A stretch of DNA of 64,000 nucleotides from Octopus vulgaris (lineage: Eukaryota), in the NCBI GenBank assembly GCA_951406725.2, contig OX597837.1, positions 10,168,001-10,232,000 on the forward strand, given 5' to 3'. Under the pieces are notes generated by a model. The model did no database searches. It worked only from the letters and a program-made list of their open reading frames with translations, and was not told where the DNA came from. Positions within the stretch are counted from its first letter, which is position 1, and each line of letters opens with the position of its first letter. Position numbers and translations under genes: made by a program. Positions 9,351 to 62,620 of the stretch are shown here, piece by piece.

Positions 9351-10002
9351 TATTGTTGTATTTAGGAATGGTCATTTTGCCAGTTTAGCCAGTAAAAACA
9401 CACGCACTATATATTTGGTGTTACTTTGCTTTAGCGTTATTTATTTTTTACATTAATCTTAATCTTATTTCGGCCAGAGTTCTTACGTCACACTCCTGTG
9501 ACCGCATCAGTGGTCCTTTGCTTTCTTCTTTCTTATTTGTGTGTCTCTCCTTACTAACGGTCAGCCATTTTGTATGTTGTATTTCTATTGTATGCGTCTT
9601 CATTTGCGCATGCGTATACCTCTGTTTAGTTAGTGGGGGGGAAGTGCCTGTAATATTTGTATCTTCTGTTTATATACGTTCGTGTAATTTGTTTTTGCTT
9701 ATTTTTATTTTGTTCATGTGTTTACACCTACTTATTATTATTATGTATGCATAATAATAAATGTATGTATGTGTATATATATATATATATATATATGTAT
9801 GTATATATATATATATATATATATATATATATATGTATGTATATATATATATATATATATATGTGAACCATCTCCGCTTAAAGGCTGTCATAAATTCAGG
9901 TTCGCTGTTCTCCCTTCTCGGCGCAGGCTCTCAGTGTCTCAACATTGGGACCCCTTCGATGGCTCACCCTCTATCATCGTCTGCTTGTCGTCTGTTATAT
10001 TG

Positions 10003-10220
10003 CGAGCTGGCAGAAACGTTAGCAGGCCGGGCGAAATGCTTGGCGGTATTTCGTCTGCCGTTACGTTCTGAGTTCAAACTCCGCCGAGGTCGACTTTGCC
10101 TTTCATCCTTTCGGGGTCGATTAAATAAGTACCAGTTACGCACTGGGGTCGATATAATCGACTTAATCCGTTTGTCTGTCCTTGTTTGTCCTCTCTATGT
10201 TTAGCCCCTTGTGGGTAATA
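10003..10220 (+). mobile_element. SINE family C monomer
   Basis: A-box TGGCAGAAACGTTAG, B-box GAGTTCAAACTC, body and tail present. Confidence 0.85.
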
Positions 10221-12234
10221 AATATATATATATATTGCCGCGCCTTACAACTATTCCTCACAATGCGATCAAACGCATAGGAGCTGGCAACTTCACCACC
10301 CAGATAATAGCGACATTTTCTTTTTTCATGTAGCTTTTGTTGTGATTGAAACCAACCATAAATGGATGTCTGTGGCCGCTTTTTGTTTACGTCTCGTTGT
10401 GTTTGTACTGAAGTACTCCTACTTCTCACAGATAGGTTATTTTTTTGTCTATTTTTTTGCACAGTCATCACCGTCAAAAATTTCTCACGGTTGTCGTAAA
10501 TCAGTGTTTTTCTGGGTTTTTTTTTAATTTTCCATGTTAACTTTTTATCGTTCGGCAAACATTCCATCCGCGCCCATCCCTCATTTCTTAGACCAATGTA
10601 CCTACCTTTCCTTATCACAAAACATTAACATGGTAAGGTGGGATTTACATACGATTTGGTATTCTCCAAGGACATACTCTTGATCTTTTACCTGTTTCAG
10701 TCATTAGACTACGGCCATGCTGGGGCACGACCTTGAAGAATTTTTAATCGAATGTATCGATCGAAGTTCTTATTGCCGAACCACGAAGTTATGGCAACAA
10801 ACTCAACAGCCCCGGTTGTCAAAAGGTGGGGGCGAACACACACACACACACACACATAAATATAAAAATATATATATACATACACACACACACACACGCA
10901 CGCACGGTGCAATGTGTAAATTGTCGCCGTTTTATATTTTTAATTTTGTCGACTACATTGGGCACTGTCTAGGAGAAAACTATCACCATGACACCGCCAG
11001 AAATTTGGAAACTTGATGATGCACTGGTGTTTGGGTGGCAATCTAAGGACATGTACCGAGAGTGGTAAAAATCAAACATCCAGTCAGCATCACTTATATA
11101 TATATATATATATGTATATATATATATATATATATATATATATATTAAACTGTTAAGAGTAGATATTAGACCTTGATCTTATATATAGAAACACACACGG
11201 GGCTCTGTAAGTTTCCGTCTGTGTGTGTGTGTGTTAAACACACACACGGGCTCTTTAAGTTTCCGTCTGTGTATGTGTGTGTGTGGCCCGCCACCGCTTG
11301 ACAACCGGTGTTAATGTGTTTATGTCCCCAGTTGTATTGGCGGTTTTGCATTAGAGATCGATAGAATAAGTACCAATCATAAAAAAGAGGGAAATAGTAA
11401 GAAAAATTAAAGTACTGGGGTCAATTCAATGGACTAAAAATTCTTCAAGGCTGAGCCCCAGCCTGGCCGCAGTCTAATGACTGAAATAAAAACATTAAAA
11501 AAAATCCCGTCTGAACAACAGCAACCTCATCTAAGATAACAACCACGACCACCATTAAATAATTTAGGTCGAGTGTTTCCTGCTCTTTTCAAAAGGCGAG
11601 ATGGTCACGTTTGGAATGCCTTCGATCATGCGTGTTCAATGAGGGGTGACTTGTAGCTAAATTGTCTCCATGCTCCTAAATTCAGTGTCACGTGTTACCA
11701 TTGCTGTGTGACGTCACAAGGCCCTTTTTTTTTCCTCTCATATAACCTTCCTTCCTTTCTCTTTGTCTCTGATGGTGCGTGACCTTTTTGTCACCAGTTT
11801 CTGTTGAATGGCAAATGCTGCTTTTCATCTCGAGTGTCAAGTTTTGTTGTTTGTGTATGAGGCGGGTGGGGGGGGAGGGCTGTGGGAAGGATGAAAATGA
11901 GGAGAGGAAGAGCGAGAGATTGGGAGACGGAGAATAAAAAAATGGAGGGTGAAAGACAGGCTAAGTACGAGACAGGAAGAGGTAAGGGGCAAATACCCTG
12001 AATAGTAGTAGGAGGATGGGAAGAGAAACATTGTGGTACACGTAGGGAAAAGCTGAATGAGAGAAAAGGGACCTACCTATCACTCTATCTACCTATTTCT
12101 CTACCTACTTACCAGTTTGTTTTCTCGCTTCTTTATATCCAATTCTCTCCTTCGTTTCTACTAGAAACCAGATCAAAATCTCAAATATAAAAGTTTGTAG
12201 TTCAGGTGTCCGTCTAGACTACATGATATGTACG

Positions 12235-13295
12235 TGTGTGTGTGTATATATATATATATATACTTATATATATATACATATATATATACATACATATATA
12301 TGTATATATACATACATATATATATATATATATATATATACATATATATATATATATATATATATATATGTATATATATATATATATATATATATATATA
12401 TACATACATATATATATATATATATATACATACATATACATATATATATATATATACATACATATACATATATATATATATATACATACATATATATATA
12501 CATACATATATATGTATGTATATATATATATATGTATGTATATATATATGTATGTATATATATATATTTACATATATATGTATGTATGTATATATATATA
12601 TATACATATATATGTATGTATGTATATATATATATACATATGTATGTATATATGTTATATATATATATATGTATGTATATATATATATATATGTATGTAT
12701 GTATGTATATATATATATATATATATATATATATATATATATGTATGTATGTATGTATATATATATATATATGTATGTATGTATGTATATATATATATAT
12801 ATGTATGTATATATATATATAATATGTATGTATGTATATATATATATATATATATGTATATATATATATATACATATGTATGTATGTATGTATATATATA
12901 TATTATATATATATATACATATATATATATATATATACATATATATACATACATATATATATACATATATATATATATATACATATATATACATACATAT
13001 ATATATATACATATAATATATATATATATATACATATATATATATATATATATATATATATATATATATATATATATATATATATATATATATATATATA
13101 TATATATATATACATATATATACATACATATATATATATACATATATATACATACATATATATACATACATATATATACATACATATATATACATACATA
13201 TATATACATACATATATATATATACATATATATACATACATATATATATATACATATATATATATATATATATATATATACATACATATATATAT
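12235..13295. repeat. ~1-kb compound (TA)n/(TACA)n/(TATG)n microsatellite
   Basis: Direct inspection; source of the long YI/YT-repeat pseudo-ORFs. Confidence 0.95.
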
Positions 13296-60234: not shown

Positions 60235-60695
60235 TATCGGCACGTAAAAACAACCATTTTAGTGGGGTCAATGCCAGTGTTGCCTGACTGGTCCCGTGCC
60301 GGTCGGTGGCACATAAAAAAGGCACCATTCGAGTGTGGTCGATGCTAGTGCTGCCTGAGTGGTCCCGTGCTGGTTGGTGGCACGTAAAAAAAAAAACACC
60401 ATTCGAGCGTGGCCATTGCCAGTGCCGACTGACTTGCTCCTGTGCCGGTGGAACGAAGAGAGCACCATTCAACCGTGGCCGTTGCCAATACCGACAGACT
60501 GGCCCCCGTGCTGGTGGCATGTAAAAAGCATCCACCACACTTTTAGGGTGGTTGGCATTAAGAAGGGCATCAAGCTGTAGAAACATTGCCAGTTCAGATT
60601 GGAGCCAGGTGCAGCCCTCTAGCTCACCAGCCCTCAGTCACACCGTCCAACCTATGCCAGCATGGAAAATGGACTTTAAACCACGATGATGATGA
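60235..60695 (+). mobile_element. RTE-tailed SINE-like family D copy
   Basis: Several GTGCCGGTGGCACGTAAAAA-type units, AGAAGGGCATCAAGCTGTAGAAA and a (GAT)n tail. Confidence 0.75.
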
Positions 60696-62414
60696 AGGAT
60701 CAAAACTCCTTGAGTCGTGGACATTTTTCTTTCTTTTCATCTTGGAAAATTTAATGAATATACTGAATATAATAAATATACTCTACTGAAAAGCATTGAA
60801 TTATTCTTTAGTTTAATGTTAAATTATAATAAATTAAAATAAGGGAATAAGGGATTAGGTCATGAATTTCATTTGCACACGCCTGTTTCTGCTATAAGAT
60901 GCAATGCACTCTCAGTTGAGTGCTTGTGTATCACCCAACAGCTTCATCAGAGCTTCAAAAAAAAAAAAAATCAAATATATATCGTAAATGGATACGTTAA
61001 TGCTCTTTAGATAAGTTACATATATATATATATATATATATATATATATATATATATATACACACATATATACATATATATATATATATATATATAAAGT
61101 AAAGATATTTTAACCGGTGACTCATAAAAAAAATTGTGATTAGTAACCACTGCACCCATGTTCATGTCATTCACTCCTTGAGGATAGAAGTTCAAGCGAG
61201 GTTAAATTTTGTTTAAATAACTTTTATTTTAAAACTTTTTTTTTTGCATTTTTTAATAAATGTTTTCCCTGTAAAATTGAAGACAGAATATAGAAAATCA
61301 AAGACAATTCTTAAAAAAATATATACAATTTTTCTCTCATTTTTTTTTTGACCATGTTGATCAGAGAGATCGAAGTGAGCCGATTAATAGGGAAAAAAAA
61401 AACAAAGATTACTTGAAAATTACTCGATTGGCTTATTAATAAATTAATCAATAATAAAATCAATAAACAGAATAATGACAGATGGACTGATTGATGGATG
61501 GACGGATAGGTTTAATGAATGAATTGATGGACGGATCGATGGATGTAATGTGTATGGACGGTTTTAATAAATGGATTGATAGATGGATCGATAGATGGAT
61601 CGATAGATGAATGCATAAGTTCAAAGAACTGAAATTTTGGTATTGTTGTTGATACTGCTGCTGGTGCTGTTGTTGGTTGGTTGGTTGTTTGGTTAGTCGG
61701 TTGGTAGGTAGTGGTACGTATGAACTAGGTGGCGCCAACGCTGCTCTGTTATTCCACAGGGTGGATGAGTATGATCTAGTCATGACTAACTATCATCCAC
61801 ATGGACCAGAAGCATATTCAACCACGCTAAGGAAAACACCGTGAGAGAGGTAGGGGTCTCACAACAAAAACCCCACAACAACAACAAAAAAAAACAGTTT
61901 GTGGAGTCTTACAACAATAACCCCACAACAACAAAAAAACAGTTTATTACTTGCTGCTTACGACTTTCCTCCATTTTTTAAAAAATATATATAAATGTTA
62001 ATTATTTGGATTAGTTCGCAGTTTTCTTCAGAGATTAATTTATTTCGTTCGTTATTTTTTTTTTCATAATTAGAAAAAAAAAACCATGTTAATTTTTTTT
62101 TTACTCTTTGACTAATATTATAAACTTAAAACTAATTATTATTACAAAAGAAACTTACCACAGATTACACAACACAATAAGTATATATGTAATATATATA
62201 TTATATATATAATGTATGTACACACATACACATTATTGAAGAGAGAAAGAGAGAGAGAGATACGTGACAAAGGGTGGCAAAATTTGTAATTTGAAAACAT
62301 TTAGCTATCGATATAAGTTTAAAGAAGGTAAAAAAAAAAAAAAAAGAAAAATCGACTGAAATCATTACAAACAAGATAATCGAAATCCTGATAAAGTGAA
62401 CTCAATATATATAT

Positions 62415-62620
62415 ATATGAAAGAAAAAAAGTGTTCAGAATGCTGGATGGTTGTAAAAATATATATTTATTTACATATCACATTATTTCTTAACATTAGC
62501 GCTCTGGTGAAACTACAGGAGTAGTTGAAAGCGTTAATATGAAGAAATAATATGTGATATGTAAATAAATATATATTTTTACAACCATCCAGAATTCTGA
62601 ACACCTATTTTCTTTCATAT
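62415..62620. repeat. fold-back inverted repeat (~90-bp arms) whose spacer is a hammerhead core/stem II
   Basis: Arms at 62415-62503 and 62530-62620. The centre reads CTGGTGA-AACTAC-AGGA-GTAGTT-GAAA. Confidence 0.85.

Follow-up and report, generated by a model that had tools for sequence, protein, structure and literature searches.

Penelope-like elements (PLEs) of the Hydra clade carry hammerhead ribozymes and target (TA)n repeats. As described by Craig et al. (2021, PMC8557442), they bear a type-I hammerhead near the 3' end and leave inverted, 5'-truncated copies. File S2 of that work gives a 4-bp palindromic helix III with a centre of 0-2 nt, and Hydra-1_Obim of Octopus bimaculoides is entered there with a (TA)n target and a hammerhead. 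For five Naiads from cephalopods the same source lists (TA)n targets, and it describes relaxed descriptors as having given no further matches in Naiads. Fold-back pairs and one-sided tails are the known structure of PLE insertions (PMC8557442, PMC11167929), the tail being explained by Frangieh et al. (2024, PMC11167929), who describe hammerhead cleavage as aided by protein and not needed for insertion in vitro. The minimal hammerheads of metazoan PLEs are reported to have low activity as dimers (Cervera and de la Pena 2014, PMC4209133). Here we compare with these systems a window of 64,000 nt from Octopus vulgaris (GCA_951406725.2, contig OX597837.1, positions 10,168,001 to 10,232,000), in which an earlier note had described at least a dozen hammerhead modules of one dispersed family next to (TA)n tracts. 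With a probability of about 0.7 these motifs represent the hammerhead-bearing 3' ends (pseudo-long terminal repeats, pseudo-LTRs) of many different, heavily 5'-truncated PLE families inserted in (TA)n, probably mostly of the Hydra clade.

All sequences listed in the earlier note, including its eight helix III variants, are present in the window at the positions given. Instead of a dozen modules only four loci retain both core halves together with helices I and II. The first, 15160-15245 (-), is an intact type-I hammerhead with a helix I of 6 bp, the core CUGAGGA, a helix II arm of 55 nt, helix III ACAUGUGU and C17. The second intact core is found at 27450-27523 (-) with a helix I of 4 bp, an arm of 46 nt, helix III ACCG-C-CGGU and likewise C17. 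At 29432-29494 (+), with a mirror copy at 29291-29353 (-), a U4C core is combined with an arm of 31 nt, helix III ACUC-A-GAGU and U17; this motif is otherwise complete, its deviations being U4C and one additional U preceding GAAA. U4C is read from the window copy, and among the 40 of 137 variant rows listed for this family the majority letter at N7 is A. The fourth motif, 35519-35611 (-), has a helix I of 5 bp, an arm of 64 nt, helix III ACACGUGU and a G8A core through which it is likely inactive. Hence the type-I core (CUGANGA, GAAA, NUH) is complete at 15.2 and 27.5 kb and shows one change at 29.4 and 35.5 kb, while the relics described below lack the full core. An 11-12 nt word spotted by eye is common to the tails of both intact hammerheads (15135-15145, 27443-27454) and to 63032-63043.

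The window (38% GC) is dense in microsatellites and in repeats resembling short interspersed elements (SINEs). A full type-I descriptor requiring CUGANGA, GAAA, a palindromic helix III, UH, helices I and II and a helix II arm of ≤ 100 nt matched it twice, at 15166-15239 (-) and 27454-27519 (-), that is, at both cores that had been called intact. Allowing one core mismatch added a third match at 35524-35606 (-) with G8A. Block shuffles yielded means of 0-0.08, and 0 of 50 reached the observed counts. A tight 3'-half pattern (GAAAC..GUH with a 4-bp self-duplex), fixed only after the data had been seen, gave 11 matches, or 9 once two inverted pairs were merged, compared to 1.49 ± 1.23 (maximum 7) in 300 shuffles and 3 in the reversed window. 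Matches are thus denser in the window than in shuffled sequence. A looser 3'-half pattern gave 59 matches vs 39.8 expected, and CCGG and GCGC halves alone are weak (4 vs a shuffle mean of 0.83, maximum 5). Core matches with a similar helix III in viral contigs were rejected as chance, as both helices reached at least 4 bp in 0 of 104, and the exact 24-nt motif of the 29.4 kb family had 0 occurrences in the metagenome and viral contigs searched. Scanning the whole window with Rfam returned 0 matches at the gathering cut-off and, by e-value, mainly microsatellite matches to microRNA models (among the 150 of 315 matches listed). In targeted scans Hammerhead_1 (RF00163) reached 25.7 bits at 15160-15245 and 20.4 bits at 27450-27523, both under the gathering score of 34 owing to the helix II insert.

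The helix II arms of the four complete motifs are predicted to fold as rods of 21, 16, 10 and 23 bp (15.2, 27.5, 29.4 and 35.5 kb, respectively), with folding z values against mononucleotide shuffles of -3.8, -2.1, -4.4 and -3.1. Whole motifs are less distinct (z -1.7 to +0.2). Predicted probabilities range from 0.76 to 0.96 for helix II and from 0.46 to 0.82 for helix I. Among the complete arms, the two longest are also the richest in AU, with 27-28% GC vs 46-48% in the others, a hint from few cases that arm length offsets weak pairing. The arm at 27.5 kb may have lengthened by insertion, since it contains a short canonical hairpin (GUCC-UAC-GGAC) followed by a GAAA-like word. A fifth arm of ~61 nt is suggested for the family at 29.8-30.4 kb, because a heptamer resembling the core stands in the expected position in another copy, and the base of the helix is restored when majority letters are used. 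As for helix III, its computed probability in monomers is 0.00-0.03 for three motifs and 0.31 for 29.4 kb, and self-duplexes have computed energies of -6.0 to -10.3 kcal/mol. A helix III that is open in monomers and pairs with itself fits the dimer model.

The window motifs share with the published Hydra-clade elements the (TA)n targeting, the type-I hammerhead with its palindromic helix III and the inverted, 5'-truncated copies, but no full element is present in the window. Helix III ACUC-A-GAGU also occurs in Penelope-3_HM and ACCA-A-UGGU in Hydra-1_oBim (PMC8557442). The hammerheads of PMC4209133 are alike in being described as dispersed single motifs, as opposite-strand pairs 100-700 bp apart and as highly varied within one genome, moreover in their palindromic helix III, predicted dimer action and lack of canonical loop contacts. 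What differs is the helix II arm: it measures 31-64 nt in the window compared to ≤ ~26 nt, by our count by eye, for the animals listed in File S2 of PMC8557442. The descriptor given in PMC4209133 (helix II of 3-7 bp, loop of 3-10 nt, helix II capped at 26 nt, no helix III insert) therefore leaves all four complete window motifs outside. A precedent for length is found in the PLE-X1 hammerheads of Selaginella, flagged as non-canonical in File S2, with an arm of ~50 nt. Unlike the window motifs, the two Selaginella PLE-X elements with such arms are from a plant, lack an endonuclease and target ribosomal DNA, and their loop is listed as unpaired rather than as a rod (PMC8557442). Non-LTR retrozymes (Cervera and de la Pena 2020, PMC7229834) resemble the window motifs as animal repeats with a type-I hammerhead and a weak helix III that are thought to use PLE enzymes. 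They are described as tandem units of ~170-400 nt with mostly canonical loop contacts, whereas no window motif is tandem; we thus rejected an identity with retrozymes, to which the motifs had been compared. No report of a long helix II in animal PLE hammerheads was found in the literature searched. The proposed interpretation as PLE-type hammerheads with a long helix II at the ends of (TA)n-targeted elements is retained, yet not as a new system: the biology of TA-targeting PLE hammerheads is already published for the Hydra clade, Octopus included (PMC8557442), and the long helix II is a modest new detail.

Of the 12 loci of the earlier note, which were chosen by eye, nine have a (TA)6+ tract within 150 bp, in agreement with its claim that most do; at random positions outside repeats the share is 23% (binomial 0.0004 at p=0.25). 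A young fold-back insertion is found at 29193-29525 between (TA)n tracts and belongs to a high-copy family. Its arms are identical over ~125 nt, and a tail of 64 nt (29193-29256) is present on the left arm only, compared to 30-40 nt described for PLE insertions. The inverted pair 29800-30408 (arms 83% alike) and the fold-back at 62.4-62.6 kb are older. Enclosed in the former, 30054-30176 is a repeat fragment of its own with high depth. Additional local fold-back hairpins are seen at 35795-35872, 30171-30241, 62798-62860 and 52374-52465, and one of them is centred on a (TA)n tract.

Contigs of 4 runs (3 organism labels) were aligned to 29193-30410; these being contigs and not reads, summed depth is not a copy number. 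Both the 29.2-29.5 kb and the 29.8-30.4 kb element are multi-copy. Over the arms of the former, summed depth amounts to 0.4-1.2 million in runs X1 and X4, vs 30-66 for single contigs among those listed, and the centre has 0.1-0.2 million, a drop that 5' truncation would produce. Loose contig ends at 29384 reveal other upstream sequence in other copies. In run X12, which we guess to be RNA, 9 contigs continue from the end of the 29.2 kb tail into TA/TG repeat. Relics that begin within or just before the hammerhead are found at 39826, 52650 and the 62.5 kb junction, whereby starts at the cut site would have escaped notice. Such copies keep sequence upstream of the cleavage site, consistent with an uncleaved RNA template (PMC11167929). 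A tandem-repeat scan of the window found no array overlapping any motif. Nucleotide comparison between sites (blastn) shows similarity only among inverted partners and, in a shared tail, between 52.6 and 62.5 kb. The single dispersed family of the earlier note hence dissolves into many separate element families.

Protein relics bear on the clade. A degenerate Hydra-type hammerhead pattern served to fetch 120 animal loci from metagenomes, in which Hydra-like open reading frames (ORFs) end 29-443 nt upstream of the hammerheads, the clade being assigned by eye against supplement sequences of PMC8557442. Helix II arms are ≤ 25 nt in 113 of 116 matches in these loci, which had been selected for short arms, and ACUCAGAGU-U is the commonest helix III (45/113), a count biased by the search pattern. 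One fetched locus (L192, 106-2277, -) contains an intact Hydra-like PLE ORF of 724 aa with 2405 relatives among 8000 candidates, implying that the 27 families of the 2021 list are only a small part of the Hydra clade. A Hydra profile built from 119 Hydra-like proteins matches the window at 46809-47144 (-) with 35.8 bits (E 1.4e-10; reversed control maximum 1.0). Including a frameshifted extension, the decayed PLE reverse transcriptase (RT) whose presence had been noted spans 46374-47144 (-), from the catalytic region to the thumb, with stops and frameshifts. It belongs to the Hydra clade as do the elements of Craig et al. (2021) and is joined to no hammerhead motif. Beside it, the opposite strand carries short Hydra-like fragments (47393-47741, +) that score within the control range and may be an inverted piece.

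For 16 sites, we further compared the preceding 500 nt with the C-terminal parts of four profiles (64 site-profile tests; null maximum 15.1 of 224). The relic at 9.5 kb has a Hydra endonuclease end 172 nt upstream (19.3 bits, 4 columns from the ORF end). The element end at 9353-9773 (-) between (TA)n tracts is thus likely a 5'-truncated Hydra-clade PLE, in which the endonuclease C-terminus ends near 9688, followed by the hammerhead relic 9468-9516. A TA-flanked end at 45.1 kb reached 15.3 bits vs a local null maximum of 15.1. Collinear weak Hydra-like endonuclease fragments at 45105-45900 (-), ending near (TA)6 and window-wide within the control range, are possibly a second decayed PLE copy. 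The regions in which Hydra-type ORFs have a DKT motif and a CxCX5C linker and have lost CCHH are absent from the Hydra relics of the window. Relics of an endonuclease or Naiad seen by eye at 35.6-36.1 and 58.7-59.6 kb are unsupported by Pfam, phmmer (one frame) and the profiles.

Hammerhead anatomy, inverted pairs, a one-sided tail, many genomic copies, TA flanks and Hydra-clade protein relics lead us to read the motifs as PLE ends. The protein relics are shown to belong to the Hydra clade, to which the motifs likely belong as well. [quoted passage not shown] The RT would mostly halt or fold back early, so that the last 100-600 nt remain with the ribozyme whole or in part. Where elements stand intact in tandem, two copies would be needed to form the palindromic helix III, allowing slow, possibly protein-assisted cleavage; the window motifs presumably act like these dimer hammerheads. 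The long helix II is predicted to be a paired rod replacing the usual short hairpin while leaving the core untouched, and perhaps offsets low GC. Most copies are dead relics, and lone copies are probably inert.

Several observations weigh against this reading. The 27454 motif has a competing fold (helix I probability 0.46), the 29.9 kb arm in the window copy folds no better than shuffles (z -0.9), and covariation is countable for none of the helices. Three of the 12 loci are far from TA: 29881/30315 (336/438 nt), 44729 (360 nt) and 58956 (840 nt). No motif has a direct repeat in the window, hence there is no pseudo-LTR/ORF/pseudo-LTR unit, which is expected for truncated copies. No ORF was detected beside the long-helix motifs, only 9.5 and 45.1 kb of the 16 sites having passed the Hydra null; a link to a PLE ORF is likely at the 9.5 kb relic. 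The clade assignment of the long-helix motifs rests on the style of helix III. Pfam on 316 stop-free stretches gave only an RT resembling those of long interspersed elements (LINEs), and phmmer on 35600-36160 gave 0 matches, a DKA-like string at 36.1 kb included. Profiles for three further PLE groups (89, 16 and 14 proteins per cluster, Naiad not among them) showed nothing above controls.

The latter result bears on the alternative that survives best, in which the long-helix motifs would be ends of PLEs outside the Hydra clade (Neptune, Poseidon, Nematis or Naiad) and might be the "missing" Naiad hammerheads overlooked by short-spacer descriptors. Naiads are marked by an N-terminal endonuclease, a DKA motif and the lack of a canonical hammerhead. 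Eight Naiads, including Naiad_Ovul and Naiad_Esco, have core halves 35-50 nt apart, and all cephalopod Naiads listed target (TA)n (PMC8557442). Moreover helix III of GCGC and CCGG type resembles non-Hydra entries in the supplement of PMC4209133. However, in the 3' ends given for Naiad_Obim and Naiad_Ovul GAAA lies upstream of CUGAUGA, and by eye they have no sequence in common with the window motifs; together with the lack of a non-Hydra ORF relic among those three groups, this makes the alternative unlikely. We consider it less likely still that at least the 29.2-29.5 kb unit is a non-autonomous, retrozyme- or miniature inverted-repeat transposable element (MITE)-like element that PLE enzymes would copy in the form of a short unit. 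Its very many copies without an ORF and its clean TA flanks would suit such a unit, and animal retrozymes have been proposed to derive from PLE pseudo-LTRs (10.64898/2026.07.22.740005), but tandem units occur at no motif, and the depth drop and the differing upstream sequence at 29384 are expected from variable truncation, not from a fixed unit. Finally, the motifs could be fortuitous resemblances singled out by eye in DNA rich in AT and microsatellites, which we hold very improbable. The TA background of 23%, the CCGG/GCGC halves within the shuffle range, the relics without helices and the inversion artefact at 62504 speak for it. Against it stand the excess of tight 3' halves, the shuffles and the viral contigs; it is refuted for the four complete motifs, and at most one to three weak relics may be due to chance.

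Returning to PLE ends, a bolder version can be drawn which we regard as doubtful. Octopod PLEs would have repeatedly evolved hammerheads with a selected helix II rod of 30-65 nt, unseen by all published descriptors, leaving thousands of animal ribozymes uncounted, perhaps the "missing" Naiad ones too. The rod would be a docking or stalling site for the RT of the element that sets truncation and fold-back, and one very abundant family would spread with a weakened U4C core. In any case a long helix II would lead standard hammerhead scans to count too few PLE ribozymes where animal genomes are AT-rich; the long-helix motifs also offer natural substrates for the open question of the role of PLE hammerheads. 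The ~14 PLE ends in 64 kb also illustrate the extent to which unannotated octopod DNA consists of PLE debris.

The remaining sites are relics or halves. The relic 9468-9516 (-) has two core changes and a short helix II. The fold-back pair 62405-62630 (85% alike) has its junction at the hammerhead core, with a short helix II and a GCGC-type helix III. The variant cores of the earlier note are thus recovered at 29.3/29.4 kb (U4C), 35.5 kb (G8A) and 62504 (A6G), while the apparent helix I at 62504 is the inverted duplication itself. At 52541-52656 (-) a 3' half (GAAA GCGC UA) with a tail resembling the 62.4-62.6 kb element lies between TA tracts. The 3' half 39815-39838 (-), GAAA CAUGUG UA, is interrupted 13 nt upstream, where a (TA)n tract begins. 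In the inverted pair 29800-30408 the 3' halves GAAA CGGCUG UA are located at 29881-29892 (-) and 30315-30326 (+), the core being decayed in this copy. Helices are missing at 41272, 44729 and 58956: here we find a weak 3' half at 41248-41281 (-), GAAA CCGG UA, 25 nt from (TA)n; a relic at 44729-44765 (-) with a damaged core, GAAA CGGCCG UU and no helix I; and a doubtful 3' half at 58956-58995 (+), GAAA CAGCUG UA, without helix II. Two sites had been missed before: the 3' half UGAA ACCA-A-UGGU A at 26989-27002 (-), which was picked up by the 3'-half pattern and has the helix III shared with Hydra-1_oBim, and, by eye, a relic at 1979-2024 (+) with helix I, an intact CUGAUGA and a damaged GAAA, 25 nt from (TA)19.

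Apart from PLE debris, the window contains a 5'-truncated LINE-like element at 13638-14830 (+) with an open RT ORF of 373 aa (13638-14756; Pfam RVT_1). Its best named match, 60% identical, is from Argonauta hians. We take this RT to be LINE-like by its motifs; it was rejected as a PLE, its Hydra profile score being within the control range. By eye, the 3' end of the element shares sequence with the end of an abundant SINE-like repeat, which suggests a LINE/SINE pair. Tandem arrays of a SINE-like unit of 166-222 bp are located at 4240-4671, 5742-6181 and 6902-7549 and contain no hammerhead by the full type-I descriptor. A MITE-like element of ~430 bp is present in two copies (48808-49238, 53648-54081) with terminal inverted repeats of 32-39 bp. 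At 61750-61836 (-) the mir-279 precursor model (Rfam RF00754) matches in full length with 49.1 bits (cut-off 56), and with its seed region intact this is probably a real microRNA gene.

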